DNA from: Candidatus Limnocylindrales bacterium | GTDB taxonomy: Bacteria; Chloroflexota; Limnocylindria; Limnocylindrales; CSP1-4 | DNA length: 64,000 nt | NCBI GenBank assembly: GCA_036570185.1 | Contig: DATCPH010000232.1 | Coordinates: 2,453 to 66,452 of the forward strand | Direction: 5' to 3' | In this document: in pieces, positions 16,600 to 39,212 of the stretch | Layout of the letters: each line of letters opens with the position of its first letter | How positions within the stretch are numbered: the stretch's first letter is position 1 | Position numbers and translations under genes: made by a program | The notes under the pieces: model-generated | The model's input: only the letters and a program-made list of their open reading frames with translations | Told to the model about the DNA's origin: nothing | Database searches by the model: none

Positions 16600-16699
16600 T
16601 TACCAGCGCCAACCGGCGGACAGCACGAGTGCCATGGCGATGAGCGGGCCGACGGTCATCAGGCTGAGCCTGGCGCGCCCGGTGAGGCGGTTGAACATT
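16600..16699 (-). CDS. Possible 32-aa small hydrophobic peptide (MFNRLTGRARLSLMTVGPLIAMALVLSAGWRW)
   Basis: Not in the ORF track because it is below the length cutoff. ATG start, one TM-like segment. It lies in a 416-bp gap. Weak evidence. Confidence 0.2.
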
Positions 16700-16952
16700 G
16701 ATCTGGCTCCCTTTTCCTGAGCATTCTGAGCAGCAGATGGTCATCTGGCCGGCCCGGCCGACCGTGGAGACGAAACGTTGCCCGATGCATCCGGTGCTCA
16801 CAACCGGCCCGTTGGTACCTGTCGACCAGCCGATGGTCCTGTCGGGCGCGGCCCGTCGAGATCGCGATACCATCGCCTGGCAAGTCCAGACGACTGCACC
16901 GACCCACGAACGGCCTTCAGCGAGATCCCGTAACACGAGGTCCCGAGTTCGT

Positions 16953-17555
16953 ATGCCCACCCCTCGCCCCCGTCTCCGTGCCGGCGCGGTCTCTTGGCGG
17001 CTGGTCCCCTTCCGCCTGGGCCTCGTCAGAGCCGCCGCGTTCCTTGCGGTTGCGTCGTCGACGACTGCGTGCACCGCCTCGTCGTCGCCGGGTTGGACCT
17101 ATGCTCCCGCCCCGTCCGTCGCATCGGCGGCTCCTGCGGCGTCGGGCGCGGCATCAGCGGCCGCGTCGGGCCCGGCATCAGCGGCCGCGTCGGTCATCCC
17201 TTCGGCCGTCCCGTCTGCAGCGGCCGCCGCACCGTCGAGCTCGCCGTCGGGCGCCCCCTCCGGTGCGGTCGGCGCCCAGCTCCAGCTGGTCGCCAAGAAC
17301 ATCACCTTCGACAAGAAAGACCTGAGTGCAGCCGCAGGCCAGGCCTTCCAGATCGTCCTCGACAACGAGGATGCGGGTGTTCCGCACAACGTTTGGATCA
17401 AGGACGCGACCGGCAACATCATCCTCAAGGACGACTTCTTCAGCGGGGTCGATACCAGGACGTACGATGTTCCGGCACTCCAGGCGGCGACCTACACGTT
17501 CTACTGCTCGGTCCACAACATCGCGGCCATGACGGGTACCCTCACGGTCCACTAG
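16953..17555 (+). CDS. Secreted/lipoprotein blue-copper (cupredoxin, plastocyanin/azurin-like) protein
   Basis: ATG at 16953 gives signal peptide MPTPRPRLRAGAVSWRLVPFRLGLVRAAAFLAVASSTTAC (lipobox-like), then a long Ala/Ser/Pro linker. The C-terminal cupredoxin domain has type-1 Cu ligands (H...C-SVH-NIAAM: YTFYCSVHNIAAMTGTLTV). Confidence 0.75.
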   Translation: MPTPRPRLRAGAVSWRLVPFRLGLVRAAAFLAVASSTTACTASSSPGWTYAPAPSVASAAPAASGAASAAASGPASAAASVIPSAVPSAAAAAPSSSPSGAPSGAVGAQLQLVAKNITFDKKDLSAAAGQAFQIVLDNEDAGVPHNVWIKDATGNIILKDDFFSGVDTRTYDVPALQAATYTFYCSVHNIAAMTGTLTVH

Positions 17556-25459: not shown

Positions 25460-26110
25460 ATGCGCGCCGACCAGGTATCCGGGTTCTTCGACGCCGGCGA
25501 AGGCTTCATCGAGGGCACGATCGCGGCCGCGCTCGTCGTCTTGTGGCTGCTCGTCGTCGCGCTCCATCTCGGCCGCCCGTACATGGTCCGGACCACCGGC
25601 AAGTTCACCCTTCGATTGGGGGCCGACCTGTGGTGGATCATCTACGTGGGGCTGCGTGACATCTTCACCGTCCAGGTCTTTCTCGGCAGCTTCATCTTCT
25701 TCTACCCGGACGTGGTCACCGGCCAGGACCTGCCGATCACCGGCGGCCTCGCCGCCGTCTGCGCGTTCGGCGCGCTCCTGATCAAGCTCATGACGCGGGG
25801 CGACGCGCGCACACCGTACCTGTGGCAGGCGCTGCTGCTCGGGTTGGGCGCGGCGCTCTATATCGGCCCGTATTTCTTCGGCGTACAGATGACGATGCTG
25901 ACCGGCAAGAACGTCGACGTGATCATGCCGCTGCTCGTCTCATCCAAGAATCCCGATCTCGCCCTGGCCCTTTGCTACCTCTCGGCGGCCCTTGTCGGCG
26001 TCCTCGGCCTTGTCGCGGTGGCCTACAACCTGCGGGCCACGATGGGCCGGCCGCAGGCCACCCGGCGCTCTTCGACTGCGGAGCAAGCCGCAACCCAAGG
26101 AGGAATCTGA
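25460..26110 (+). CDS. Hypothetical 5-TM membrane protein, operonic with the Fe-S flavoprotein
   Basis: Starts 3 nt after the flavoprotein stop with GGGAGGG SD. Five hydrophobic helices. Paralogous to the next gene. Confidence 0.65.
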   Translation: MRADQVSGFFDAGEGFIEGTIAAALVVLWLLVVALHLGRPYMVRTTGKFTLRLGADLWWIIYVGLRDIFTVQVFLGSFIFFYPDVVTGQDLPITGGLAAVCAFGALLIKLMTRGDARTPYLWQALLLGLGAALYIGPYFFGVQMTMLTGKNVDVIMPLLVSSKNPDLALALCYLSAALVGVLGLVAVAYNLRATMGRPQATRRSSTAEQAATQGGI

Positions 26111-26739
26111 TGTTGAGTGCCGACGATCTGGCCCAGGCCCTGACCCACGGCTCCTCCGGGTGGATGGTCCTGTCGGTCGCCGCGGTGCTGCCGATCCTGT
26201 GGGCCTTCACCCTGGTCCTGCACTTCGCCCGCCCCGCGATGATCCGCTTCCTCCAGAGCCTGACCCTGCGTTTTGGTGGCGACGTCTGGTGGCTCTCCTA
26301 CGTGCTATTCCGGGACGCGCTCCTGGTGATCACCCTCGGATTGAGCGTGATCTTCCTCATGCCAAATCTCTATCTGAAGATCGGGCTTCCGATCACGGCG
26401 CCGCTCGCGACGCTCGTCCTGTTCTGGGCGCTCATCGTGAAGCTCGTTCGCGATTCGGATGATGATCCGGCCGCCTTCCGCCTTGTCAGCGTCCTGTTGG
26501 TCGTGGCCTCGGTGCTCTACATCGTCCCGCAGATCTACGGTCTCGAAGCAGCCGATCAGGCGTATCTGGGCGGCCTGCCGGCCGCCCTCACCAGCAGCTC
26601 GAATCTGGCGGTCGCCAAGCCGATCCTCTGGATCAGTCTCGGGCTCCTTGGCCTGACGGCGACCGGCGTGTTCCTGCGCTTCCTGCGCGACCTCCTGCGG
26701 GCCGACTTCGCCGACGAGGAGTCGTCCGCCGGGGCCTGA
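26110..26739 (+). CDS. Hypothetical 5-TM membrane protein, paralog of the preceding gene
   Basis: ATG 26110 with AAGGAGG SD, overlapping the previous stop. Shared blocks with its neighbour: TLR(L/F)G(A/G)D(L/V)WW and GLPIT(G/A)(G/P)LA. Confidence 0.65.
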   Translation: MLSADDLAQALTHGSSGWMVLSVAAVLPILWAFTLVLHFARPAMIRFLQSLTLRFGGDVWWLSYVLFRDALLVITLGLSVIFLMPNLYLKIGLPITAPLATLVLFWALIVKLVRDSDDDPAAFRLVSVLLVVASVLYIVPQIYGLEAADQAYLGGLPAALTSSSNLAVAKPILWISLGLLGLTATGVFLRFLRDLLRADFADEESSAGA

Positions 26740-26785
26740 CGGATCGGGCTCGGAATAAAGAGGCTCCGCCGAGAGCGCGGTCGCT

Positions 26786-27364
26786 TCAGCCCGCGGCGCC
26801 TCCAACGTTGACGTTGCGTCCGTTGACGGCCGCGGCGACGTCACGGGGCGGCTCTTCGCCAGTCATCGCCTCGCTGTTGAGGCGGTCGGTCAGCAGCAGG
26901 ATCAGGCGAAGCAACTCGCGCTGATCCGTCTCGCTGAGGCCGCCGTAGACGCGGGCCATCATCGCCTGGCGATGGGCGAAGATCTTCGGAACGCTGTCGG
27001 CCTGGGTCGTGAGCTCGACGATCGTGGCGCGCCGGTCGGATGGGTGCGGACGCCTGCGGACCAGCCCCTCCGCCTCGAGACCGTCAACGAGCGCGGTGAT
27101 GTTCCGGGCCGTGACTCCCAGGCGCTGGCTCAGCTCGGCCATGATCTGCGGCCCATGGCGATGAAGCGCGAAGAGGAGCTGCAGCCGCGGCCACGAGAGC
27201 CCGCCCTCGGGCTCGTGGGCTCGTGCCCAGCGGCCGAATGCGGCCCCGAACGCCCCCCAGGCGCCGACCAGTTCCGCGGCCGTGCTGGTTGCCGGCGGAC
27301 GGCTCACCCGCCGCCGCCGTTCGGCCCCGGGCGACTCAGTCGGCCTGCCCGATACTGTAGACAT
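26786..27364 (-). CDS. MarR family transcriptional regulator
   Basis: Winged-HTH region LSWPRLQLLFALHRHGPQIMAELSQRLGVTARNITALVDGLEAEGLVRRRPHPSDRRATIVELT. Divergent from an ABC exporter pair. Confidence 0.8.
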   Translation of the reverse strand: MSTVSGRPTESPGAERRRRVSRPPATSTAAELVGAWGAFGAAFGRWARAHEPEGGLSWPRLQLLFALHRHGPQIMAELSQRLGVTARNITALVDGLEAEGLVRRRPHPSDRRATIVELTTQADSVPKIFAHRQAMMARVYGGLSETDQRELLRLILLLTDRLNSEAMTGEEPPRDVAAAVNGRNVNVGGAAG

Positions 27365-27497
27365 TCATTATCCACCGTGATACTGTCACGGCCTTCATGA
27401 TAGCACTCGGATCCGGCAACCTCCACGCCTCGAACACATTCGGTCCACACGATCGGCCGACGATCGCGGGTACCGTGAACAACGAGGAACGAACCCG

Positions 27498-29246
27498 ATG
27501 ATCCGCCTCCTTCGGACCTACCTTCGGCCGTACTCTGGCCAGCTGACCCTGACCATGGGCCTGTTGCTGATCGGGGCGATCGGGAACCTGTATCTGCCGA
27601 CGCTCAATGGCGACATCATCAACAACGGCGTCGCCAAGGGTGACAACGGGTACATCCTGCAGGCCGGAGCGCTGATGCTCGTGGCGACGTTCGCCCTCGG
27701 AATCGCCTCGATCGCGGCGGTGTATTTCGGCGCGCGGATCGCGATGGGCTTTGGTCGCGACGTTCGCAGCGCGATCTTCCGCAAGGTCGAGAGCTTCAGC
27801 CAGGTCGAAGTGAATCGCTTCGGGCCGCCGTCTCTCATCACCCGGAACACGAACGACGTCCAGCAGGTCCAGATGGTCGTGTTCATGGGCCTCACGATCC
27901 TGGTCTCCGCCCCGATCCTCGCCGTCGGCGGGATCATCCTCGCGGTCCGGCAGGACGTGCCCCTGTCCGGCCTTCTCGTCGTCATCCTGCCGCTCATGGC
28001 CGCCTTCATCGGCCTGGTGATGTCTCGAGCCATCCCCCTCTTCCGGTCCATGCAGGTCAAGCTGGACCGGATCAACCAGGTGATGCGCGAGACCCTCGCC
28101 GGCGTCCGCGTCATCCGGGCCTTCGTCCGGGCGGAGCACGAGGAGGGGCGCTTCGATCAGGCCAACACCGACCTCTTCAACACCGCGATCTCGGTCAACC
28201 GCCTGTTCGCACTGACGATCCCGGTGATGAGTGGGATCTTCAATCTGTCGAGCGTCGCGGTGATGTGGTTCGGCGCCCTCCGCGTGGACAGCGGACAGAT
28301 GCCGATCGGCAACCTCACCGCGTTCCTGCAGTACCTCATGCAGATCCTCTTCGCGGTGATGATGGCCGTTTTCATGTTCGTCTTCGTGCCGCGAGCAGCC
28401 GTCTCGGCCGGTCGGATCCAGGAGGTCCTCGAAACCGATCCGCTCATCTCCGATCCCGAGCGCCCGGTGCCGCTCCCGCCCATCGGGTCCGGGACGCGAC
28501 GTGGGGTCCACGTCGAATTCCGCGACGTCGAGTTCGGCTATCCCGGGGCAGAGCAGCCGGTCCTCCGCGACAACTCCTTCGAGGCCCGGCCCGGCGAGAC
28601 GACGGCCATCATCGGCAGCACCGGCAGCGGCAAGTCGACCCTCATCAACCTGATTCCGCGCTTTTACGACGTCACCGGTGGCTCGGTACTGATTGACGGT
28701 GTCGACGTCCGTGAGATCAACCGCGAGGACCTCTGGCTGCGGATGGGCGTCATCCCCCAGAAGGCGTTCCTCTTCAGTGGGACCGTGGCCTCCAACCTCC
28801 GCTTCGGGGACCAGAACGCGACGGACGACGAGTTGTGGCGGGCGCTCGAGACGGCCCAGGCGCGGGACTTCGTCGAGGAGATGGGCGGCCTTGACGCGCC
28901 GATCACGCAGGGCGGAACGAACGTTTCGGGCGGACAGCGCCAACGACTGGCGATCGCCCGAGCCCTGGTGAAGAACGCCGGGCTGTACATCTTCGACGAG
29001 AGCTTCTCGGCCCTCGACTTTGCGACCGACGCCCGCCTCCGTGCTGCGATCGAACGAGAGCTCGGGTGGGCCACCCTGATCATCGTTGCCCAGCGCGTCG
29101 GCACGATCATGAAAGCCGATCAGATCCTGGTCATGGAGGATGGCCGGATCGTCGGCCGGGGCACCCACGCCGAACTGCTCGACACCAACGAAACCTATCG
29201 CGAGATCGTCTACTCGCAGCTGTCGGCCGCGGAGGCGGTGGCATGA
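27498..29246 (+). CDS. ABC transporter ATP-binding/permease protein (type I exporter half-transporter, MDR-like)
   Basis: 6-TM domain followed by an NBD with Walker A GSTGSGKST, signature VSGGQRQRLAIARA and Walker B LYIFDESFSALD. Confidence 0.9.
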   Translation: MIRLLRTYLRPYSGQLTLTMGLLLIGAIGNLYLPTLNGDIINNGVAKGDNGYILQAGALMLVATFALGIASIAAVYFGARIAMGFGRDVRSAIFRKVESFSQVEVNRFGPPSLITRNTNDVQQVQMVVFMGLTILVSAPILAVGGIILAVRQDVPLSGLLVVILPLMAAFIGLVMSRAIPLFRSMQVKLDRINQVMRETLAGVRVIRAFVRAEHEEGRFDQANTDLFNTAISVNRLFALTIPVMSGIFNLSSVAVMWFGALRVDSGQMPIGNLTAFLQYLMQILFAVMMAVFMFVFVPRAAVSAGRIQEVLETDPLISDPERPVPLPPIGSGTRRGVHVEFRDVEFGYPGAEQPVLRDNSFEARPGETTAIIGSTGSGKSTLINLIPRFYDVTGGSVLIDGVDVREINREDLWLRMGVIPQKAFLFSGTVASNLRFGDQNATDDELWRALETAQARDFVEEMGGLDAPITQGGTNVSGGQRQRLAIARALVKNAGLYIFDESFSALDFATDARLRAAIERELGWATLIIVAQRVGTIMKADQILVMEDGRIVGRGTHAELLDTNETYREIVYSQLSAAEAVA

Positions 29247-31330
29247 GCGAGCAGCGATCCGACTCCGGCCCGAGGACCAACGGCCATCGACCCGATAGCG
29301 CGGGCGCAGGCTCGCCGGCCATGCGTACCGGAGCGGGAAGTCCGCCAGCGGGAGCCGGTGGTCCGCCGCCCGGCGGCCCGATGCGACCGGGCGGGGGTCC
29401 CGGCGGCGGCCGGGGGGCCGGAATGATGGGCTTCGGCATGCCGGTCGCCAAGCCGAAGAACTTCCGGGACGGATTCCTGCGGCTCCTTCGCCGGCTTCGG
29501 CCGGAGTCGCCCCTCGTGATCCTCGTGGTTGCGCTGGCCGTCATCAGCGTGACCCTCGCGGTCATCGGCCCGAAGATCCTCGGCAACGCGACGAACGACA
29601 TCTTCCAGGGGCTCATCAGCAAGCAGCTGCCGGCGGGCGTCACAAAGGAACAGGCTGTCGCCGCCCTGCGGGCGCGCGGCCAGAACCAGCTCGCCGACAT
29701 GCTCAGCGCCATGACCCTCACGCCGGGGGTCGGCGTCGATTTCGGCGCCCTCGGGCAGACGCTGCTCTTTCTCGTGGGCATCTACGTCCTGAGCTCGATC
29801 TTCAGCTGGGGCCAGGCATGGATCATGGCCGGCGTCACGCAGCGGACCGTCTACCGTCTCCGCCAGGATGTCGACCACAAGCTCGCGCGCCTGCCGCTCA
29901 AGTATTTCGATAGCCATCCGCGCGGGGACACGCTCAGCCGGGTCACCAACGACATCGACAACATCGGCCAGACGCTCCAGCAGAGCCTCACCCAGCTCAT
30001 TACCTCGCTCCTGACCGTCGTCGGAGTGCTGATCCTGATGCTGACGATCAGCCCGATCTTGGCGGCGATCTCGCTGCTCGCGGTTCCGGCCTCGATCGTC
30101 GTGACGATCCTGATCGCCGGTCGCTCGCAGAAGCAGTTCATGGCCCAGTGGGCATCGACCGGCGCCCTCAACGGCCACGTCGAGGAGATGCACACGGGCC
30201 ACTCGATCGTGAAGGTGTTCGGGCGCCAGCAAGAGGCGATCGAGGCCTTCGACGCCGAGAACGACCGCCTGTACGACGCGAGCTACCGCGCCCAGTTCAT
30301 CTCCGGGATCATCCAGCCGGCGATGAACTTCATCGCCAACCTCAACTACGTGGCCATCGCCGTGATCGGCGGCCTGCGTGTCGCGTCGGGGCAGCTGAGC
30401 CTGGGCGACGTCATCGCCTTCATCCAGTACTCGCGGCAGTTCACCTTCCCGATCGTCCAGACCGCGAGTATCGCGAACGTCCTGCAATCGGCCGTGGCCT
30501 CTGCCGAGCGGGTCTTCGAGCTCCTCGACGAGCCCGAAGAGGTTCCCGACCCGGTCCGGCCGCGGATCCTTTCGAAGCCGCGGGGCGCGGTCGCGTTCGA
30601 GGACGTCTCGTTCCGGTACGAGCCGGACAAGCCCCTGATCGAGCACCTCGACCTGGTTGCCGATGCGGGCGAGACCGTCGCGATCGTTGGTCCCACGGGT
30701 GCTGGCAAGACCACCCTGGTCAACCTGCTCATGCGCTTCTATGAGCTCGACGGCGGCCGCATCACCATTGACGACATCGACACCCGCGAGCTCACCCGCG
30801 ACAACCTGCGGCGCACGTTCGGGATGGTTCTCCAGGACACCTGGCTGTTCCACGGCACCATTCGCGAGAACATCGCCTACGGTCGCGAGGACGCGACGGA
30901 GGCCGAGATCATCGAAGCGGCCGAGGCGGCCCACGTCGACCACTTCGTGCGAACGCTGCCGGACGGCTACGACTCCGTGATCGATGACGACGCCACGAAC
31001 CTGTCGGCCGGCGAAAAGCAACTGCTCACGATTGCTCGGGCGTTCCTCGCCAATCCCCCGATCCTGATCCTCGACGAGGCGACGAGCTCGGTGGACACGA
31101 GGACGGAAGTTCTGATCCAGCGAGCCATGCAGCGCCTGATGAAGGGCCGGACCACCTTCGTGATCGCCCACCGCTTGTCCACGATTCGCGACGCCGGCAC
31201 GATCCTGGTCATGGACCACGGCAGCATCATCGAGCAGGGCACCCACGAGGAGCTGTTGACTCGGCGGGGCTTCTACTACGAGCTCTACAACAGCCAATTC
31301 GTCGAGCCGCTGGTCGCCGAAGCCGTGTAG
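29243..31330 (+). CDS. ABC transporter ATP-binding/permease protein (second half of heterodimeric exporter) with Gly/Pro-rich N-terminal extension
   Basis: ATGA overlap with the upstream gene. N-terminal about 70 aa of low complexity (GAGSPPAGAGGPPPGGPMRPGGGPGGGRGAGMMGFGMP). Then a TMD, and an NBD with GPTGAGKTT, LSAGEKQLL, LILDEATSSVD. Confidence 0.9.
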   Translation: MSEQRSDSGPRTNGHRPDSAGAGSPAMRTGAGSPPAGAGGPPPGGPMRPGGGPGGGRGAGMMGFGMPVAKPKNFRDGFLRLLRRLRPESPLVILVVALAVISVTLAVIGPKILGNATNDIFQGLISKQLPAGVTKEQAVAALRARGQNQLADMLSAMTLTPGVGVDFGALGQTLLFLVGIYVLSSIFSWGQAWIMAGVTQRTVYRLRQDVDHKLARLPLKYFDSHPRGDTLSRVTNDIDNIGQTLQQSLTQLITSLLTVVGVLILMLTISPILAAISLLAVPASIVVTILIAGRSQKQFMAQWASTGALNGHVEEMHTGHSIVKVFGRQQEAIEAFDAENDRLYDASYRAQFISGIIQPAMNFIANLNYVAIAVIGGLRVASGQLSLGDVIAFIQYSRQFTFPIVQTASIANVLQSAVASAERVFELLDEPEEVPDPVRPRILSKPRGAVAFEDVSFRYEPDKPLIEHLDLVADAGETVAIVGPTGAGKTTLVNLLMRFYELDGGRITIDDIDTRELTRDNLRRTFGMVLQDTWLFHGTIRENIAYGREDATEAEIIEAAEAAHVDHFVRTLPDGYDSVIDDDATNLSAGEKQLLTIARAFLANPPILILDEATSSVDTRTEVLIQRAMQRLMKGRTTFVIAHRLSTIRDAGTILVMDHGSIIEQGTHEELLTRRGFYYELYNSQFVEPLVAEAV

Positions 31331-31435
31331 CGGTCGGGCGGGCCGTCCAGTCGACAGCGTTCCGATGTGAACGCATCGTCACCGGACCAGCGTTCATCGA
31401 ATCGAAAGGATCGACGCGCTACCGTTCGGAGGTAG

Positions 31436-32809
31436 ATGCGCCAGTCTGTCGCGCTCCGGCCCCTTCCGATGCCCCGCACCTGGCCGCTCCGACCGAGCGA
31501 CCTTGCGGCGTTCGCCACGGCAAACGGAATCCTCATTGTCGGGATGTGGGTGCGCCACGGCGGCCTGAACAGCCTCGACAGCCTGGGCACCCAGCTGACC
31601 GCTGCCGGGCAGCTGACCGCCCTGCTCGGCACCTACCTGGTCCTGATCCAGCTCGTCCTCATGTCGAGGAGCCCGTGGCTCGACCAGCTGTTCGGAATGC
31701 CCCGTCTGGCGGCCTGGCATCGGTGGGTCGGGTTTGCCTGCCTGTGGTTGCTCGTGGGACACGGCGTCTTTACGATCGTCGGCTTCTCGATGGTGGATCG
31801 GATCGACCCGATCGGTGAGGCCTGGACGATGCTGACGACCTACCCCTACGTCCTCATGGCAACCGCTGCTCTCGGACTGCTCGTGCTCGTCGGCGTCACG
31901 TCCGTCCGGATCGCCCGACGACACCTTACCTATGAGACCTGGTACTACGTCCACATCTACGCGTATCTCGGGGTTGCGCTCGCCTTCGCCCATCAACTCG
32001 TGGTCGGCACGGACTTCATCAACGACACGCTGGCGCGCGGATACTGGATCGCGCTCTATGCGCTGACCGCCGCCTGCATCCTCTTCTTCCGGATCGGCCC
32101 TCCGATCCAGATGGCATTCCGGCATCGACTTCAAGTGGCGAACGTCGTCTCCGAAGGCCCGGGGGTGATCTCGATCTACGTGACCGGCCGCGATCTCGAT
32201 CGGCTGCCCGTCCGTGCCGGCCAGTTCTTCCTGTGGCGGTTCCTGGCCGGCGATGGGTGGTGGCGGGCGCATCCCTTTTCGATCTCGGCGGCCCCGAACG
32301 GCGAATGGCTGCGGCTGACGGTCAAGGATCGAGGGGACGACACCAGAGCCCTCCAGGCCCTGCGCATCGGCACGCCCGTGTTCGCTGAAGGGCCTTACGG
32401 TGCCTTCACTGGGGCTCTGAGCAGCCGGCCGCGAACCCTGCTGATCGCGGGAGGCATCGGGATCACGCCCCTCCGGGCCCTTCTCGAGGAGATGGCCGCG
32501 CCACCCGGGACCCTCACCCTGATCTACCGGGCCAGTCGCTGGGACGACGTCATCTTTCGTCGTGAGCTCGACGTCCTGATCAAGGCCCGTCTATGGCGGG
32601 TTCACTACGTCGTCGGGCGGCGAGGGCTGGGCGAGGTGCCACGCGAGCCCCTCGATGCCGCCCACATTCGCGCCCTTGTCCCGGACGCGGCAAAGCGCGA
32701 CGTCTTCGTCTGCGGTCCGGACTCCTTGCTCGATGCCGTTCGCCGCAGCCTGGCAATCCTCCGCGTGCCGGTAGCACAGATCCATTTTGAAAGGTTCGCA
32801 TTCTCGTGA
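31436..32809 (+). CDS. Ferric-reductase-like transmembrane domain fused to FAD- and NAD(P)-binding domains (NOX/FRE-type membrane flavoprotein)
   Basis: N-terminal 6-TM domain with paired His residues (HRWVGFACLWLLVGHGV, HIYAYLGVALAFAH). FAD motif HPFSI and NAD motif GGIGITP in the cytoplasmic ferredoxin-reductase-like module. Confidence 0.8.
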   Translation: MRQSVALRPLPMPRTWPLRPSDLAAFATANGILIVGMWVRHGGLNSLDSLGTQLTAAGQLTALLGTYLVLIQLVLMSRSPWLDQLFGMPRLAAWHRWVGFACLWLLVGHGVFTIVGFSMVDRIDPIGEAWTMLTTYPYVLMATAALGLLVLVGVTSVRIARRHLTYETWYYVHIYAYLGVALAFAHQLVVGTDFINDTLARGYWIALYALTAACILFFRIGPPIQMAFRHRLQVANVVSEGPGVISIYVTGRDLDRLPVRAGQFFLWRFLAGDGWWRAHPFSISAAPNGEWLRLTVKDRGDDTRALQALRIGTPVFAEGPYGAFTGALSSRPRTLLIAGGIGITPLRALLEEMAAPPGTLTLIYRASRWDDVIFRRELDVLIKARLWRVHYVVGRRGLGEVPREPLDAAHIRALVPDAAKRDVFVCGPDSLLDAVRRSLAILRVPVAQIHFERFAFS

Positions 32810-33339
32810 GGACGTCCACGGCCCATGGCAGCAGGCTGACTCCGATCCCTACGCGCGCTGTCGTCGCGATCGCCGGAACAGCCCTGGGGCTCATTCTCCT
32901 GTTCAGCTTCAAGACGCCCGATCAGGCCCCGCACCGGCTCGCTGGTGCGGCCGCGCCCGCGGCCTCTGCTGGGCCGATCGCCGCGTCAGGACCGGGCGCG
33001 ACATCGGCGCCGGGAGCGGCCGCAGCTCCAACGGCGGCACCGAAGGCGACGACTGTTACCGGAACGAAGACGGTCATCGGCGACGACGTGCCCAACCAGT
33101 TCGGCGACGTCCAGGTCCAGGTGACGTTCTCCGGCAGGAAGATCACCGACGTCAAGGCTCTGCAGCTGCCCTCCGATCGCGCCCGCTCGGCACAGATCAG
33201 CAATTTCGCCGCGCCGTACCTTCGGACGGAAGCCCTCCAGGCCCAGAGCGCCCAGATCGACCTGATCTCGGGTGCGACGTACACCAGCGAGTCGTACGCG
33301 CAATCGCTGCAATCGGCGATCGACAAGGCTGGCGTTTGA
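32806..33339 (+). CDS. Exported FMN-binding domain protein (flavinylation substrate)
   Basis: N-terminal membrane anchor AVVAIAGTALGLILLF, then an Ala/Pro linker. C-terminal FMN_bind domain with the flavinylation motif DLISGATYTSESY. ATGA-coupled to the upstream gene. Confidence 0.75.
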   Translation: MRTSTAHGSRLTPIPTRAVVAIAGTALGLILLFSFKTPDQAPHRLAGAAAPAASAGPIAASGPGATSAPGAAAAPTAAPKATTVTGTKTVIGDDVPNQFGDVQVQVTFSGRKITDVKALQLPSDRARSAQISNFAAPYLRTEALQAQSAQIDLISGATYTSESYAQSLQSAIDKAGV

Positions 33340-33380
33340 CGGTCGCGGCGCCCACGGAGCTTCGGCCTCAAGCTCGCCCC

Positions 33381-34133
33381 ATGCATCGAGTCGAGCACGC
33401 GATGGGTACGGCGATCAGCGTCGACCTTCGAGATGGCCACATCGGCGACGAGGTGCTCGGCGGGGTTTTCGAGCACTTCCAATCCGTCGACGCCCGCTTC
33501 AGCCCGTTCAAGCCGGACAGCGAGGTGAGCCGCCTCAGCCGCGGCGACATCGTCCTGGAGTCCTGCAGCCCGGATCTTCGAGAGGTCCTCGACTTATGTG
33601 ACGCGGTCCGTCTCGACAGCAACGGATATTTCGACATCCGCGCACACCGCACCGACGGTGATATCGACCCGTCGGGCCTCGTGAAGGGCTGGGCCGTCGA
33701 AGGGGCGGCGAAGATCCTCGACCAGGCCGGCATCCGGAACTACTACATCAATGCGGGCGGAGACGCGTTGATTCGCGGTGAAGCCGGACCGATGCAGCCG
33801 TGGCGCGTGGGAATCCGTCATCCAGAGCGCCCTGACCGGGTCGCCGCGGTCCTCGAGGTCAGGGACCTCGCCGTCGCGACCTCGGGCGCATACGAGCGCG
33901 GAGAGCATGTGATCGATCCGCACACGCACCGCGCGCCCGAGGGCATCCTGAGCGTGACGGTTGTCGGCCCCAGCCTGACCTTTGCCGATGTCTACGCGAC
34001 CGCCGCACTGGCGATGGGGCCGGCAGGCCTCGAGTGGATCGCCTCTCTGCCCGAGTACACCGCCTGCTTCATCACGACCGATCGTCGCCTCGTCTGGACG
34101 CCGGGTTTCGAAGCCCATATGGCATCGCCCTAG
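33381..34133 (+). CDS. apbE: FAD:protein FMN transferase
   Basis: Conserved ApbE N-terminal MGT block (HAMGTAISVD) and overall ApbE pattern. An alternative in-frame TTG start at 33336 overlaps the upstream stop. Confidence 0.8.
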   Translation: MHRVEHAMGTAISVDLRDGHIGDEVLGGVFEHFQSVDARFSPFKPDSEVSRLSRGDIVLESCSPDLREVLDLCDAVRLDSNGYFDIRAHRTDGDIDPSGLVKGWAVEGAAKILDQAGIRNYYINAGGDALIRGEAGPMQPWRVGIRHPERPDRVAAVLEVRDLAVATSGAYERGEHVIDPHTHRAPEGILSVTVVGPSLTFADVYATAALAMGPAGLEWIASLPEYTACFITTDRRLVWTPGFEAHMASP

Positions 34134-34183
34134 CCCGCTCCGGCTGCGGCGTAGCGGGTCGGCGCGCGTCATTGTCGTCGCCC

Positions 34184-35506
34184 TCAGGTCCGCGCCGGCG
34201 CCTCGGCCTCGGCGGATTGCTCCAAGCTCTGCCCTTCGAATGCGGGTCCCCGCGTTCGGTTCCAGGCAACAGACATTCGCGCTCCGCCGCCCGGAGAGTC
34301 GCCGATCTCCCATTTGCCACCGGTGGCCGTGACGATTGCATCGGCGATCGCCAGGCCCAGGCCGGCCCCACCATGCTCTTCGTTCGCTCTATGGAATCGA
34401 TCGAAGATCCGGTCGCGCTCCTCTACCGGAATCCCGGGCCCGGTATCGTCGACGGTGAGTCGGACCCGACCGCCGTCCGTCGACACCTGTACCGCGACGG
34501 CGCCGCCCGGCGGCGAGTACTTCACTGCGTTGTCGAGAAGGACGGAGACGAGTCGCGCGAGCCACTCCGGCGGGGCGGTGACGACTGGGCCCGATAGGCC
34601 GGTTACGCGGAACTTGAGCTCGAGACCGCGGTGATCGCAGACGGCGCGGAAACGCTCTGTCGTTGTCGCCGCGAGGGCGCCCAGGTCAATTGGAGCCGCT
34701 TCGGGGGGGTCGGGCGTGGCATCGAACCGGGCCAGCCACAGAAGGTCGTCCACGAGGCGGTGGAGATGGCGGCTTTCGGCGAGCACGTGCTCGAAACCGC
34801 TCCGATCCAGATCGGGCTCGCGCGGGGAGCCGAGGGCCAGCGAAGCCTCCGCCTCGATGACGGTCAGCGGCGTACGAAGCTCGTGGGAGGCGTCGGCCGT
34901 GAAGTCGAGCTGGCGACGGCGCGCCCGCTCGATGGGCCCCGCGACCCTGCGTCCGATCGTCAAGGATCCGAGGAAGACGAGGAGCAGCACGAGCGGTGCA
35001 ATCGCGACCTCGGCGAGGATGACGGTGTTCTGTGCGTTGGCCATCTCTGCCGTCGATTGCGCTACCTCGATCCAACCCGGCCCCAGCGCTGCGCCGGTGA
35101 GGCGAACCTGAGAGCCGCCCACGCTGGCGATGACCGGCGCCGTGACTCGGCGCTGGTCCAGCGCCAGCGTCGCTCTCGGATCGCTGGCGGTCACCGTCCC
35201 GTCCGGCCCGATCAGCCAGACGAGGAGCGGTGCCTCGAAGCGTCGCCCTTCGCGCTCATCGGTCGCGTCCGGATTCACCGCGGCGATCGGTACGCCGTTC
35301 GCGAACAGCTCGTCGGCGTCGCTCCGGGTCTGCATCGCGGAGATCTCGTCCTGGAGCCGTCGGTCGATGCCGGCCACGAGGTTCCGCTGAACGAGCAGGA
35401 CCACGACCACCGCGACCACGAGGTACAGGACCCCGACGATCGCCGTTGTCGTGGCGGCAACCCGGATCGGGAGGTGTCGGAATCGAGCGGGCGGGCGCGG
35501 AGTCAT
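34184..35506 (-). CDS. Sensor histidine kinase (HAMP + HisKA + HATPase_c)
   Basis: Two TM segments. H-box LDFTADASHELRTPLTVI. N, G1 and G2 boxes (VLLDNAVKYSPPGG, DDTGPGIP, GGAGLGLAI). Confidence 0.85.
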   Translation of the reverse strand: MTPRPPARFRHLPIRVAATTTAIVGVLYLVVAVVVVLLVQRNLVAGIDRRLQDEISAMQTRSDADELFANGVPIAAVNPDATDEREGRRFEAPLLVWLIGPDGTVTASDPRATLALDQRRVTAPVIASVGGSQVRLTGAALGPGWIEVAQSTAEMANAQNTVILAEVAIAPLVLLLVFLGSLTIGRRVAGPIERARRRQLDFTADASHELRTPLTVIEAEASLALGSPREPDLDRSGFEHVLAESRHLHRLVDDLLWLARFDATPDPPEAAPIDLGALAATTTERFRAVCDHRGLELKFRVTGLSGPVVTAPPEWLARLVSVLLDNAVKYSPPGGAVAVQVSTDGGRVRLTVDDTGPGIPVEERDRIFDRFHRANEEHGGAGLGLAIADAIVTATGGKWEIGDSPGGGARMSVAWNRTRGPAFEGQSLEQSAEAEAPART

Positions 35507-35522
35507 GAGGCGAAGCTGTGGC

Positions 35523-36200
35523 TCACGACGCGAGCCGGTAGCCTGCGCCTCGGACCGTCACGATCTGGGCACCGGACCCGGCAAGCTTTGCGCGGAGGCG
35601 GGCGATCTGGACATCGATCGTATTCGAGCCGATCGGCTCCGTTTCATCCTTCCAGGCGTGCTGCGCGATCAGCTGGCGGTTCACCACGGCCGGAGCGCGG
35701 AACATGAGCACCTCGAGGATTCGGAACTCAGTGCCCGTCAAGTGGAGTGGGAAGTCGCCGGCGAGGACGTCCCGCGTCGCCGGGTCGAGAGCCAATGTGC
35801 CCCGCTTCAGGATGCGACCATCGGTACTCCCGGGCCGCCGGACGAGGGCCCGCACTCGGGCAAGGAGCTCATCGAAATCAAACGGTTTCACCAGGTAGTC
35901 GTCGGCTCCAGCGTCGAGCCCGGCCACCCGATCGGCCGGCGCGTCGCGCGCGGTCAACATCAGGACCGCGGTGCCGTTCCCTTCCTGGCGCATCCGGGCG
36001 ACGACTTCGAGGCCAGACGTGTGAGGCATCCGCCAGTCGAGGATGACCACCGCATATTCGTAGAACCGGATGTAGTCGAGCGCCTCGTCGCCGGTCGCGA
36101 CGGCATCGACGAAGTAGCCGCTCCGCTCGAGGCCGCGAACGAGCACGGATCGAAGGGCTTGGTCGTCCTCAGCGACCAGGAGCCGCATGGGGCAAACCAT
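35523..36200 (-). CDS. OmpR-family response regulator
   Basis: Receiver domain (LLVAEDDQALRSVLVRGLERSGYFVDAVATGDEAL...VVILDWRMP) plus winged-helix DNA-binding domain. Confidence 0.9.
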   Translation of the reverse strand: MVCPMRLLVAEDDQALRSVLVRGLERSGYFVDAVATGDEALDYIRFYEYAVVILDWRMPHTSGLEVVARMRQEGNGTAVLMLTARDAPADRVAGLDAGADDYLVKPFDFDELLARVRALVRRPGSTDGRILKRGTLALDPATRDVLAGDFPLHLTGTEFRILEVLMFRAPAVVNRQLIAQHAWKDETEPIGSNTIDVQIARLRAKLAGSGAQIVTVRGAGYRLAS

Positions 36201-36341
36201 TGGGCGCCGTCATCGCGCGAGAGTGTAGGTCGCTCGACCTTACGGCAGCATGACGGCCCCCCGCCAGGTCGCCGAGGTCGCCCCGCGCAGGCCGCCAAGG
36301 CGCCCGTCGAAGCAGCGGGGTCGCTCCGCGAACCTCGTCCG

Positions 36342-37268
36342 CTAGGTGCCCGTCGAGCTCTCGGCTTTCTGGATCAGGCCCATCGCGTCACCGATCGGGA
36401 TCGCGAAGCCGATCCCCTCGGCCGTGGTCGCCGTTGCCGAGTTGACGCCGATTACGGCCCCCGAGGCGTCGAGGAGCGGCCCCCCGCTGTTGCCGGGGTT
36501 GATGGCAGCGTCCGTTTGGATGAGGTTTTTCAGTTGGACCCGTTGACGCGTTGCGGCGTCGCGGACCGTGATCGACCGGCCAAGTCCGGACACGATGCCG
36601 CTGGTCACGGTTTCGGTAAAGGTGCCGAGCGGACTGCCGATCGCGATCACCAGTTGACCCACCGCGAGCTTGGATGAGTCACCCAGCGTTGCCGGCTTCA
36701 ATCCGGTTGCCGTGACCTTGATGATCGCAAGATCGGCCGCCGTGTCCGACGTCACGACGCTGGCATCGAACTGCTGCCCGTCGGAGGTCTCGACCGTCAA
36801 CGAACTGCTGCCCGCAACGACGTGGGCGTTGGTCAGGATGAGTCCGCCGGCGGTCAGGATGATGCCCGATCCGACGCCGGTGCTCGGGACCGAGAACGGC
36901 GACAGGTTCGATGTGCCCTGCGAGGTGATCGTGACGACCGAGGGGTCTGCCTCGGCGGCGACCGCCTCGATTGCGGTCTGCTGGTCCTCGGGAGCGAGGG
37001 ATTGGGCCGCCGTCGTCTCTCGGCCGCTCGGCGGCTGCGCCGTTGCTGTCGCCGAGGTGATGTTCGCCGGCCTGACCAGCAGGAAGGCCGTCGCCCCAGA
37101 TGCGAGAGCCGCCGACAGCAGGGCCGTTACGAGAATCACCGGGACCGATGCCTGACGCGGCCGACGCGTCGGAGGCTCCAGCGGTTGCGCGGGCTGCTGC
37201 CTCTCGTCCATGTCCATGGTCATGGAATACGCTGGGCACCTGAAAGCCCGCTGAGAATGTCTTTGCAC
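36342..37268 (-). CDS. Membrane-anchored trypsin-like serine protease (HtrA/S1C-type, no PDZ domain)
   Basis: TM anchor VPVILVTALLSAALASGATAFLLV. Catalytic triad context TNAHVV, DLAIIKV and GNSGGPLLD. Confidence 0.8.
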   Translation of the reverse strand: MQRHSQRAFRCPAYSMTMDMDERQQPAQPLEPPTRRPRQASVPVILVTALLSAALASGATAFLLVRPANITSATATAQPPSGRETTAAQSLAPEDQQTAIEAVAAEADPSVVTITSQGTSNLSPFSVPSTGVGSGIILTAGGLILTNAHVVAGSSSLTVETSDGQQFDASVVTSDTAADLAIIKVTATGLKPATLGDSSKLAVGQLVIAIGSPLGTFTETVTSGIVSGLGRSITVRDAATRQRVQLKNLIQTDAAINPGNSGGPLLDASGAVIGVNSATATTAEGIGFAIPIGDAMGLIQKAESSTGT

Positions 37269-37373
37269 CGGCCTATCGAACGACGAAAATCGAGCGAGCC
37301 ACCAGGCAAGCGGGTAGTTCGGCCGCTATCGTGGCGCGGTGCATGAGGATCTGAGTCTGGCCGTCCGTGCGTC

Positions 37374-38045
37374 ATGCCGCGGGAATCACTCGTGACCGCG
37401 GCAGAGCTCGATCTCGCCCCGGCCGTCGCGGTCGTGTCCGCGGCCGATCCGGTGATGGGGGAGTTCATCCGTCGCGCGGGTCCCTATGAGGAGCGTGCCG
37501 GTTACGGCGACTACTTCGGCTCGCTGGCGCGCGCGATCGTTTTCCAGCAGCTCGCCGGACGCGCCGCCGCCGCGATCCACGGGCGAGTCGTGGCCGCCGT
37601 GGGTGGCCGTATGACCCCGGAAGCGATTCTGGCGACGACACCCGAAACGCTCCGTGCGGCTGGACTCTCAGGTGCGAAGACCGCCTCGCTCATCGACCTG
37701 GCGACGCACGTCATCGACGGAACCGTCCCGCTCGAAGGCCTCGCGGCTCTGGACGATGAGGAGATCATCGCCCGCCTCATCGAGGTCCGGGGTGTCGGAA
37801 GGTGGACCGCCGAGATGTTCCTGATGTTCGAGTTGCGCCGGCCGGATGTCTGGCCGGTCGAGGACTACGGCGTGCGCAACGGCTACAGCCTGATCCACTC
37901 ACTCCCCGAGATCATCAAGCCTCACGCCCTGCGCGAGGCCGGCGAGCCATTCCGCCCATTCCGGAGTTTCGTCGCGCTCTATTGCTGGCATGCAGTCCAC
38001 ATCGCTCGGGGCCAGATCGTGTTGCCGGCCGCGACAGAAGGCTGA
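37374..38045 (+). CDS. alkA: DNA-3-methyladenine glycosylase II (HhH-GPD family)
   Basis: HhH-GPD motif region IARLIEVRGVGRWTAEMFLMFELRRPDVWPVEDYGVRNG, with the catalytic Asp in VEDYG. Confidence 0.8.
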   Translation: MPRESLVTAAELDLAPAVAVVSAADPVMGEFIRRAGPYEERAGYGDYFGSLARAIVFQQLAGRAAAAIHGRVVAAVGGRMTPEAILATTPETLRAAGLSGAKTASLIDLATHVIDGTVPLEGLAALDDEEIIARLIEVRGVGRWTAEMFLMFELRRPDVWPVEDYGVRNGYSLIHSLPEIIKPHALREAGEPFRPFRSFVALYCWHAVHIARGQIVLPAATEG

Positions 38046-38095
38046 GCGTCCGTCCGGGCTTCGCCGACGTTTACGTAGCCGGGAATCCCGTCGCT

Positions 38096-38410
38096 TCAGC
38101 TCTCGGGGACGATCGGCTCCAGGTCGATCGTGCGAACCCGGCGTGTGTGGCCTGAGTCGGTGCGAACCATTGCCGACGGAATCACACCTGGCGCCAATGA
38201 AACGATGACGGCAGCCTCGCCGCTGTAGAGCCCGGTGTTGCCGATTCGGACGCGGCTCCCGACCGCCAGACCCTTCCGTCCGGCTCGGGCTGTGATGTCG
38301 ATCGCGACAACACCGGTCCGTACGAATGTCGGGTCAGCCGGTCCGCCGACGACGCCCGGCGGTCGGCGGCTCGTGAGTGCCACCGGATAGGTGACTTTTC
38401 GCCTGCGCAC
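38096..38410 (-). CDS. Hypothetical small protein (104 aa)
   Basis: GTG start directly abutting the upstream gene stop. High GC3. No recognized domain. Confidence 0.5.
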   Translation of the reverse strand: MRRRKVTYPVALTSRRPPGVVGGPADPTFVRTGVVAIDITARAGRKGLAVGSRVRIGNTGLYSGEAAVIVSLAPGVIPSAMVRTDSGHTRRVRTIDLEPIVPES

Positions 38411-38965
38411 TTAATAGGACCGTCGCGAGCGCGGCTCTTCCTTGGGGGGACGCGGCTCGTGGCCCGGTCGGGGCGGGCGTGGCTGGGTGCCGGGGGCCAT
38501 GTCGGGCCGTCGCGGCTCCGGGCCGCGTGCGCGGGCCGCCTCCACGGTCGAGGCAAATGCCCCGGCGCGATCGGCCGGAAGGCTTCGCAGCCACGCGCTT
38601 TCGATCTCCTTCACGCGCTCGGACTCGCCGATGCGGCGATCGCGCTCGTGCCTTGAGTGTTTCGTCATTCGAACCTCGCTTCGCGTCCGCACCCTCAGCG
38701 GGCGCTCGACGAGGTCATTGTGACCGGGTGGCGCAATCTCGTATCGGACTACTTGGTCGCCTGGATGTCCTCGCTCAAGCTCCCGCTCGGCGGTAGCCTT
38801 GGCATGATGGCTCGAGCTGAGTCGCTCGACCCGCTCCGATAGCTCCTGAACGCGCGGATCTTCCGGGTCAAGCCCCGCTTTCTCTTCCTCGAGGCCTTTC
38901 ACCTGCTCGGCATCGCCGCGGATCGACTCTTCGGTGGCCTGAAAATCCTCCTGCGAATCGGGCAT
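38411..38965 (-). CDS. Hypothetical highly charged (Glu/Arg-rich, likely disordered or coiled-coil) protein
   Basis: Start chosen at ATG 38965 (MPDSQEDFQATEES...). The track start 39055 is an upstream GTG that overlaps the preceding gene even further. C-terminal Pro/Arg-rich tail. Confidence 0.45.
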   Translation of the reverse strand: MPDSQEDFQATEESIRGDAEQVKGLEEEKAGLDPEDPRVQELSERVERLSSSHHAKATAERELERGHPGDQVVRYEIAPPGHNDLVERPLRVRTRSEVRMTKHSRHERDRRIGESERVKEIESAWLRSLPADRAGAFASTVEAARARGPEPRRPDMAPGTQPRPPRPGHEPRPPKEEPRSRRSY

Positions 38966-39212
38966 CCTGCTCCTGCGCTCCTGGCTTCGCGACAGTCGTC
39001 CTGGTATCGATCCAGTGTCCGTCGCGATAGACGTACCAGACGAGGATCGGCTCACCGACCAGCTCTCGAGCGTGGACGACGGCTTGCGGATAGAGACCCT
39101 TGAGCCGCCGTTCGAGCTCGTCGGTCGATGCTGCGCCGTGGTCGACGACCATCCTGGCGAACTCGCTGAAGACGCGATCGGCAGCCGGGTTCACCACGAG
39201 GGTCGGGCTCAT
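38868..39212 (-). CDS. Hypothetical protein (MSPTLVVNPAADRVFSEFARMVVDHG...WYVYRDGHWID)
   Basis: Very high GC3 over the first about 75 codons. The last about 35 codons have poor codon usage and overlap the next gene out of frame by about 98 nt. Confidence 0.45.
   Translation of the reverse strand: MSPTLVVNPAADRVFSEFARMVVDHGAASTDELERRLKGLYPQAVVHARELVGEPILVWYVYRDGHWIDTRTTVAKPGAQEQDARFAGGFSGHRRVDPRRCRAGERPRGRESGA

Follow-up and report, generated by a model that had tools for sequence, protein, structure and literature searches.

Could three overlapping bacterial genes suffice to export electrons from cytoplasmic NAD(P)H through the membrane, onto a flavin at the outer face of the cell, and where would that flavin be attached to its protein? 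The question is raised by positions 31436-34133 of a 64,000-nucleotide stretch of DNA from Candidatus Limnocylindrales bacterium (GenBank assembly GCA_036570185.1, contig DATCPH010000232.1, positions 2,453 to 66,452), hereafter the window. Three overlapping genes on the + strand encode a ferric-reductase-type membrane protein of the NADPH oxidase (NOX) fold, a protein with an FMN_bind (flavin mononucleotide-binding) domain, and the flavin transferase ApbE. The contig (C232) belongs to a 3.7-Mb assembly of 320 contigs, which is 93% complete, and the base composition of the window is high, about 65-72% G+C. As judged from the sequences and a structural model, the trio is probably an MsrQ-like transmembrane electron-transfer system, which would lead from NAD(P)H to an external FMN_bind protein. 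An original prediction, made from the letters alone, had placed such a module here; its coordinates and three-gene content agree with our reading of the open reading frames (ORFs), and its three domain assignments with a Pfam scan.

The three genes and their conservation

The genes and the predicted functional sites within them, all on the + strand, are as follows.
31436-32809, +, NOX-fold reductase, 457 amino acids; ATG start with GGAGG 3 nt upstream
31718-31762, +, H95 (31718-31720) and H109 (31760-31762) codons, H-x13-H, predicted transmembrane segment 3 (from sequence)
31952-31993, +, H173 (31952-31954) and H186 (31991-31993) codons, H-x12-H, predicted transmembrane segment 5 (from sequence)
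32806-33339, +, FMN_bind protein, 177 amino acids; GTG start
33259-33279, +, predicted flavinylation motif D152-L-I-S-G-A-T158 (from sequence)
33336-34133, +, ApbE, 265 amino acids; TTG is the most upstream start

The reductase and FMN_bind genes overlap by GTGA, and the FMN_bind and ApbE genes by TTGA, provided that the TTG at 33336 is the start. An alternative ATG at 33382, located 43 nt past the FMN_bind stop, yields a protein of 250 amino acids. The database call of this gene (P0002) begins even later, yet the conserved RVEH lies upstream of its first Met.

How widely is this arrangement found? A scan of one genome per species gave 110 relatives of the reductase, of which 79 distinct loci were kept. 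Most of them come from metagenome-assembled genomes (MAGs) labelled Chloroflexota, Chloroflexia or Limnocylindria (54-71% identity) or Dormibacterota, and further relatives occur in Actinomycetota, including Streptomyces (40-50% identity), and in a few Patescibacteria. The Streptomyces loci L060, L081, L082 and L085 contain the same three genes. Gene order was counted in the 69 loci whose reductase gene is followed by 1400 nt or more of sequence. In 59 of them, which span Chloroflexota/Limnocylindria, Dormibacterota and Actinomycetota, FMN_bind and then ApbE follow on the strand of the reductase, and stops and starts overlap or abut between the trio genes in related loci. The ten exceptions comprise one locus with FMN_bind and ApbE both on the other strand, four with FMN_bind only (on the reductase strand in three cases and on the opposite one in the fourth) and five with neither at phmmer sensitivity. 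Of the 151 genomes searched in the class of the window, 48 contain a reductase orthologue (E <= 1e-40), a tally that includes one unpublished genome (G106); among high-quality genomes the figure is 40 of 111. The distribution is therefore patchy, as for an accessory module.

Relatives of the reductase with 35-44% identity occur in MAGs labelled Saccharimonadia, Levyibacteriota and WWE3 (L048, L051, L073, L079, L083 and L084). One of these loci (L048) has FMN_bind and ApbE on the opposite strand, and in most of the other five they were not found with the same queries. Flavinylation was described as ‘strikingly underrepresented’ in the candidate phyla radiation by a survey of 2021 (PMC8238504).

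For residue conservation, an alignment of 50 sequences was used, consisting of the window and the 49 of the 79 loci with near-full-length matches for all three genes; the other 30 loci, with partial, truncated or missing matches, were left out. The first protein matches PF01794 Ferric_reduct (E 5.7e-19, residues 62-183), PF08022 FAD_binding_8 (E 1.5e-5), a domain for flavin adenine dinucleotide (FAD), and PF00175 NAD_binding_1 (E 1.2e-7, residues 336-436). It has six hydrophobic segments, predicted to be transmembrane (residues 21-39, 58-76, 98-116, 139-157, 172-190 and 199-220), which are followed by the dehydrogenase domain, predicted to be cytoplasmic. The NOX signature consists of H-x13-H in the third transmembrane segment, H-x12-H in the fifth, a FAD motif of the HPFS type and, for NAD(P)H, a G-x-G-x-x-P motif. 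All of these occur here: both His spacings, within the local sequences WH95RW..VGH109G and VH173IY..FAH186Q, HPFS at residues 279-282 and GGIGITP at residues 339-345. The four His residues, whose absence would have spoken against the original prediction, are each invariant in 50/50 sequences, as are P280 and S282 of HPFS and the Gly and Pro residues of GGIGITP, while H279 is His in 47/50.

The AlphaFold2 model built from the 50 sequences (mean predicted local distance difference test score 84.4, predicted template modelling score 0.80) has as its top fold match the NADPH oxidase of Streptococcus pneumoniae (SpNOX), represented by cryo-EM and crystal structures (8qt6/8qq7, TM-score 0.70/0.79 over the full length), followed by DUOX1, NOX5 and NOX2. 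SpNOX is also the top sequence match in the PDB (E 3.8e-12), and a weak NCBIfam match to MsrQ (E 1e-5) falls far below the cut-off. By its motifs and modelled fold, the protein appears to be a bacterial NOX-fold enzyme, that is, a putative di-haem membrane protein with an FAD/NAD(P)H module of its own. Like SpNOX, it would combine a six-transmembrane di-haem domain and an FAD/NADPH dehydrogenase domain in a single chain; however, the identity is only 18-19%, and the acceptor of SpNOX is O2. We know of no FMN_bind or ApbE partner of SpNOX.

The second protein consists of a short basic N-terminus, a hydrophobic helix, a linker of about 50 residues rich in Ala, Pro, Gly and Thr, and an FMN_bind domain (residues 88-175; PF04205, E 1e-8, 36.1 bits against a cut-off of 22, residues 100-172). 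The membrane anchor that had been claimed for it would be this helix, which covers residues 19-35 (nt 32860-32910) with a mean Kyte-Doolittle hydropathy of 2.43. The flavinylation motif SGATYTSESY, also named beforehand, was located at residues 155-164. It overlaps a sequence that fits the published definition D-x-x-[S/T]-G-A-[S/T] (PMC12052999), in which T158 (33277-33279) is the predicted site of the FMN phosphoester, and the pattern [D/N]-x-x-[S/G]-G-A-[T/S] is present in 50/50 aligned sequences. The closest solved structure is 8p2a (E 2.6e-19, residues 88-175, about 55% identity over 88 residues), a domain of SaFMN3 of Streptomyces azureus. This protein, too, is anchored at its N-terminus and receives its FMN from ApbE at the same motif (PMC10339131), but it carries three tandem FMN_bind domains versus one here.

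A search for longer FMN_bind relatives returned 37 matches, 34 of which are multi-domain FMN-binding proteins of Streptomyces. Two apparent fusions (P0156 and P0157; reductase-FMN_bind and FMN_bind-ApbE) contain Arg-rich out-of-frame stretches and were rejected as frameshift artefacts of assembly or gene calling. No true fusion of FMN_bind with the reductase or ApbE was found among the 37, which is weak evidence because the search returns few long proteins by design.

The third protein matches PF02424 ApbE (E 5.6e-45, 154 bits against a cut-off of 25.6) and E. coli ApbE (4xgw, E 1.1e-17). Its S183, H191, D218 and T222 are invariant in 50/50 sequences. The conserved residues in Vc_ApbE are Ser241-His257-Asp285 (PMC12052999), to which S183, H191 and D218 would correspond, as read from a HMMER alignment to E. 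coli ApbE.

What kind of system, then, do these genes resemble? The comparison with ApbE-associated gene clusters that had been proposed for this locus leads to the MsrQ-like systems of Meheust et al. (2021, eLife; PMC8238504), in which a PF01794 protein is encoded beside flavinylation genes. The survey counted 1,797 such clusters, 1,437 of them with a C-terminal PF00175 domain, for which NAD(P)H was proposed as the cytosolic donor, and 31 with a NuoF-like protein in place of PF00175. The trio has the architecture of the PF00175 type: a predicted di-haem PF01794 protein with a C-terminal PF00175 domain, six predicted transmembrane segments and four His residues, encoded within five genes of ApbE and FMN_bind, which are here directly adjacent. 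The published system was ‘broadly conserved in Actinobacteria’ and infrequent elsewhere (PMC8238504), whereas the closest relatives here are Chloroflexota/Limnocylindria and Dormibacterota; in addition, the VIT1 iron transporter is not near the trio. MsrQ-like proteins were later modelled, and conserved His residues singled out, by Huang et al. (2024; PMC11334425). The trio is thus a catalogued, experimentally uncharacterised system, and what it adds is a lineage counted as infrequent in 2021, not a new mechanism.

The periplasmic methionine sulfoxide reductase MsrPQ of E. coli offers a further parallel, in which a ferric-reductase membrane domain, the haem-binding MsrQ, feeds an extracytoplasmic redox protein, MsrP. 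The reductase of the window differs in carrying its own NAD(P)H module, and no PF00174 gene (MsrP, Oxidored_molyb) was seen in the window, while three lie on other contigs of the genome.

An ApbE without an export signal

The identification of the third protein as ApbE stands, with its PF02424 match and its Ser, His and Asp residues, but one correction is needed: this ApbE lacks an export signal. An N-terminal lipoprotein or secretion signal is usual in ApbE proteins, though not in all of them. Here the conserved MGT is preceded by about 22 residues only, with no hydrophobic stretch among them, and however the upstream frame is read, it offers no hydrophobic N-terminal segment. A longer protein from that frame was rejected, as the extension overlaps the FMN_bind gene and is Arg-rich, again with no hydrophobic stretch.

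Could this be a peculiarity of one gene? Among the 66 related loci with an ApbE match, an MGT-type motif was found by pattern in 51. For 47 of these, the maximum 15-residue hydropathy upstream of MGT in the stop-to-stop frame is 1.4, and the remaining four have fewer than 15 residues upstream. The same is true of proteins called by other pipelines: among the best 120 homologues from a collection of 5.8 billion proteins (median length 272 amino acids), 117 have fewer than 60 residues ahead of MGT, the highest 12-residue hydropathy is 1.78, and a hydrophobic segment is likewise missing from the two long outliers. In the open-access portions of the literature that we consulted (PMC8238504, PMC11334425, PMC12052999, PMC9973259), no mention of a leaderless ApbE in such clusters was found.

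Since the protein has no export signal, ApbE would most likely act in the cytoplasm, on the C-terminal motif of its substrate, before or during export of the latter. It has been reported that 7-residue tags on unfolded termini are flavinylated by ApbE in the E. coli cytoplasm (PMC12052999); modification before export is therefore feasible. A cytoplasmic ApbE without a signal peptide is also known from Klebsiella pneumoniae, where it serves the maturation of fumarate reductase (PMC12052999). There, however, the substrate is a soluble cytoplasmic enzyme, versus a protein with a membrane anchor and a surface-type linker here.

Which substrates are available to this ApbE? The genome contains two ApbE genes, two ferric-reductase-domain genes and one FMN_bind gene, which is that of the window. 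Neither NqrB/RnfD nor DUF2271 was found in the 93%-complete genome. Because no second FMN_bind, nor NqrB/RnfD or DUF2271, was found in this assembly, the FMN_bind protein of the window is the only recognisable ApbE substrate found, and the objection that the enzyme might serve another target, such as Nqr or Rnf encoded elsewhere, gains no recognisable candidate. It should be noted that the DUF3570 search matched no control genome and says nothing on the presence of this family in the genome.

A predicted electron path and its rivals

In the proposed mechanism, cytoplasmic NAD(P)H would reduce the FAD of the NOX-fold protein, and the electrons would pass to an inner haem b (H95/H173) and then to an outer haem b (H109/H186). 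The outer haem would reduce the FMN that is held covalently, at the outer face of the membrane, on Thr158 of the tethered FMN_bind protein, and this FMN would finally pass the electrons to an extracytoplasmic oxidant. The phosphoester at Thr158 would be made by ApbE from FAD. NOX haems have potentials near -225 and -265 mV. By analogy, these may be compatible with the path, since the FMN that ApbE attaches to the related domain 8p2a of SaFMN3 has a midpoint potential of -184 mV, and its reduced form is reoxidised by O2 (PMC10339131). The original prediction had drawn the same route, with NAD(P)H as the donor and an extracytoplasmic flavoprotein at its end, and as a route it agrees with the published model (PMC8238504). 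Like that prediction, we infer it: the binding of haem and flavin, the direction of the electrons, the outside location of the FMN_bind domain, the physical docking of the proteins and the acceptor are all deduced.

Several observations weigh against this path. Published models put ApbE outside the cytoplasm, supplied by exported FAD (PMC9973259, PMC12052999), while the ApbE proteins considered here have no signal peptide. The charge rule leaves open which way the FMN_bind anchor is oriented: among 29 FMN_bind proteins, Lys plus Arg are more numerous in the N-terminal than in the C-terminal flank in 10, equal in 16 and fewer in 3. When all ORFs from the 79 loci were clustered all against all and 32 cluster representatives were scanned with Pfam, no conserved acceptor gene emerged beside the trio, and in the window its surroundings showed neither an iron transporter nor a Fur-type signal or a riboswitch. 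In addition, the literature on MsrQ-like systems, in the parts that we consulted, contains no assay of any cluster member.

Given these observations, could the flavin work on the other side of the membrane? The FMN_bind protein might insert with its N-terminus out and its C-terminus in, be flavinylated and act in the cytoplasm near the FAD domain of the NOX-fold protein, where it could be an alternative entry or exit for electrons, and the outer haem would then reduce the acceptor directly. The equal or reversed flank charges (16/29 and 3/29), the nearly invariant Lys or Arg that directly follows the hydrophobic helix among FMN_bind relatives, and the lack of an ApbE export signal in any homologue examined would all suit such an arrangement, and the fumarate reductase of Klebsiella is an example in which ApbE and its FMN_bind substrate are both cytoplasmic (PMC12052999). 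We nevertheless consider it improbable, since the mean number of Lys and Arg is higher in the N-terminal flank (2.5 versus 1.5), the long linker of Pro, Thr, Ser and Ala and the multi-domain Streptomyces relatives are taken as marks of surface proteins (PMC10339131, PMC8238504), and the NOX-fold protein already has a cytoplasmic flavin module. The reverse solution, in which ApbE leaves the cytoplasm by an unconventional way and flavinylates outside, either by hitch-hiking on the FMN_bind pre-protein through the route of twin-arginine translocation (Tat) or by an unrecognised signal, is unlikely. The residues before the anchor are RR in 10/29 FMN_bind proteins and KR or RK in 8/29, the basic residue after the helix recalls the ‘Sec-avoidance’ of Tat signals, and by analogy the NosX-type ApbEs are Tat substrates. 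However, 11/29 proteins have a single Arg, including that of the window (T-R), and no gene for an FAD exporter was seen among those that recur beside the trio.

A plain bacterial NADPH oxidase, which would turn O2 into superoxide or H2O2 at the outer haem while FMN_bind and ApbE merely share the operon for a separate function, is what the His spacing and the best sequence and fold matches, SpNOX followed by DUOX1, NOX5 and NOX2, would suggest. This is very improbable: the conserved order in 59/69 loci of three phyla, with overlapping or abutting genes, would be difficult to account for unless the genes work together, and the occurrence in 48/151 genomes of the class is the pattern of an accessory module. 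Transfer of electrons through the NOX-fold protein to an external, covalently flavinylated FMN_bind protein thus remains the reading that we prefer.

Neighbouring genes, the second ApbE locus and a possible role

What might the system serve? Downstream of the trio, on the opposite strand, three genes with htrA first form a string that is convergent with it.
34184-35506, -, sensor histidine kinase (Pfam HisKA/HATPase_c)
35523-36200, -, OmpR-type response regulator (Pfam Response_reg/Trans_reg_C)
36342-37268, -, HtrA-family serine protease, membrane-anchored, with no PDZ match (Pfam Trypsin_2, E 4.6e-34; the NCBIfam HtrA match, E 2.1e-68, is below the curated cut-off)

Homologues of the regulator and/or the kinase occur within 5 kb of the trio in 15/79 loci and flank it directly in 11/79, which span Chloroflexota, Dormibacterota and Actinomycetota. 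They are located upstream and mostly divergent in L031, L050, L071, L072, L075, L080, L081, L082 and L085, and downstream and convergent in L034 and L035. In 8/79 loci the trio has an htrA homologue as its immediate same-strand neighbour, which precedes it in L008, L010 and L012-L014 and follows it in L037, L039 and L042. On the basis of recurrent adjacency only, the two-component system is a candidate regulator of the trio, and HtrA is a candidate functional neighbour only.

Other genes recur as well. In 5/79 loci (L026, L027, L028, L029 and L055) the trio has an MsrP-like molybdopterin oxidoreductase as a neighbour, located upstream on the - strand. Four of these five also hold a second reductase with a fused FNR module (FAD_binding_6 and NAD_binding_1); such loci would hold two NOX-type electron exporters with different acceptors. 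A MacB/FtsX-type ATP-binding cassette (ABC) permease occurs within 5 kb in 10/79 loci (L032, L037, L041-L044, L046, L052, L061 and L080), and in Bifidobacterium breve genes for FtsX-type permeases accompany that of SifE, an FMN_bind protein (PMC5449479). All such counts overstate independence, because the loci are related to one another, and the recurrent neighbours are leads to a role in envelope stress or repair, not proof of it. Only the trio and its antisense shadows form ORF clusters present in more than 17 of the 79 loci.

Upstream of the trio in the window are a pair of ABC exporter genes and a MarR gene (26786-31330). As partners of the trio they were rejected: they are not conserved there, with only generic ATPase-level matches of at most 83 bits. 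The second exporter gene (29066-31330, +), which is MsbA/CydDC-like, encodes a protein whose N-terminus is extended by about 100 residues, with Gly, Pro and Arg in abundance. No terminator-like site was found in the 105-nt gap between this gene and the trio, no promoter-like site was found, and a single terminator-like site is at chance level. Rfam gave no match at E <= 0.1 within 26000-39000.

A secreted cupredoxin had also been pointed out in the window, at 16953-17555. The ORF exists, at 16698-17555 (+), and matches Cupredoxin_1 (E 4.4e-7) and Copper-bind (E 1e-6), but nothing ties it to the trio, which is 14 kb away. The genes in between are unrelated and encode an editing domain like that of tRNA synthetases, a cNMP-binding protein, the beta subunit of a transhydrogenase and an Fe-S flavoprotein.

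The second ApbE locus of the genome (C301:8947-10866; L001:1112-3031) consists of an ORF of 111 amino acids, ApbE, an MsrQ-like protein of 214 amino acids and a NuoF-like gene, in that order, and its ApbE (C301:9285-10289, 334 amino acids) is also leaderless. Both the PF00175 variant and the NuoF-like variant of the MsrQ-like system are thus present in one genome, the latter on C301. The 111-amino-acid ORF encodes one hydrophobic helix and a Thr/Ser-rich linker, and its C-terminus is T-T-G-G-S. Its codon-position GC is atypical (0.46/0.76/0.86), a pattern for which the Thr/Ser bias could account. A small ORF precedes this second type of ApbE in 20/27 loci of the same class, with a tail of the [T/S/G/V/R]-x-G-[G/S/A/T]-S type at the stop or at most three residues from it. 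The anchored ORF looks like a candidate domain-less flavinylation substrate or tag. Beside this locus, together with a kinase, is a response regulator (C301:12339-13184, +) that is a 64% identical paralogue of the regulator of the window; from these sequences, each of the two ApbE/ferric-reductase loci of the genome seems to have its own two-component system.

As to the acceptor, a broad surface reductase for Fe(III) chelates or other small oxidants is our tentative first guess. Anchored SifE and ApbE are required by Bifidobacterium breve under iron limitation (PMC5449479), and iron reduction therefore stays in play. Support of the envelope under oxidative damage or stress, governed by the neighbouring two-component system, is a more doubtful second guess. 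Taken together, the observations allow a broader reading, which is possible but speculative. A cytoplasmic ApbE, characteristic of the whole subfamily, would attach FMN to the motif before or during export, and the module would be switched on by an envelope-stress-type two-component system together with HtrA; it would then serve stress response or repair, and not respiration or the uptake of iron. The same logic may hold for the second leaderless ApbE, with a domain-less anchored peptide ending in T-G-G-S as its substrate.

If flavinylation does take place in the cytoplasm, monoderm-type bacteria would make a surface flavoprotein without exporting either FAD or ApbE, and the site at which leaderless ApbE acts bears on the maturation of surface flavoproteins in bacteria without a known FAD exporter. 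This type of cluster is common, as indicated by the 1,437 clusters of the 2021 survey (PMC8238504) and the 48 of 151 genomes in the class of the window. The recurrent two-component system and HtrA neighbours suggest a concrete first condition under which its physiological role may be sought. Finally, among bacterial proteins its members would be the nearest relatives of NADPH oxidases that pass electrons to a second, covalently flavinylated carrier rather than to O2.

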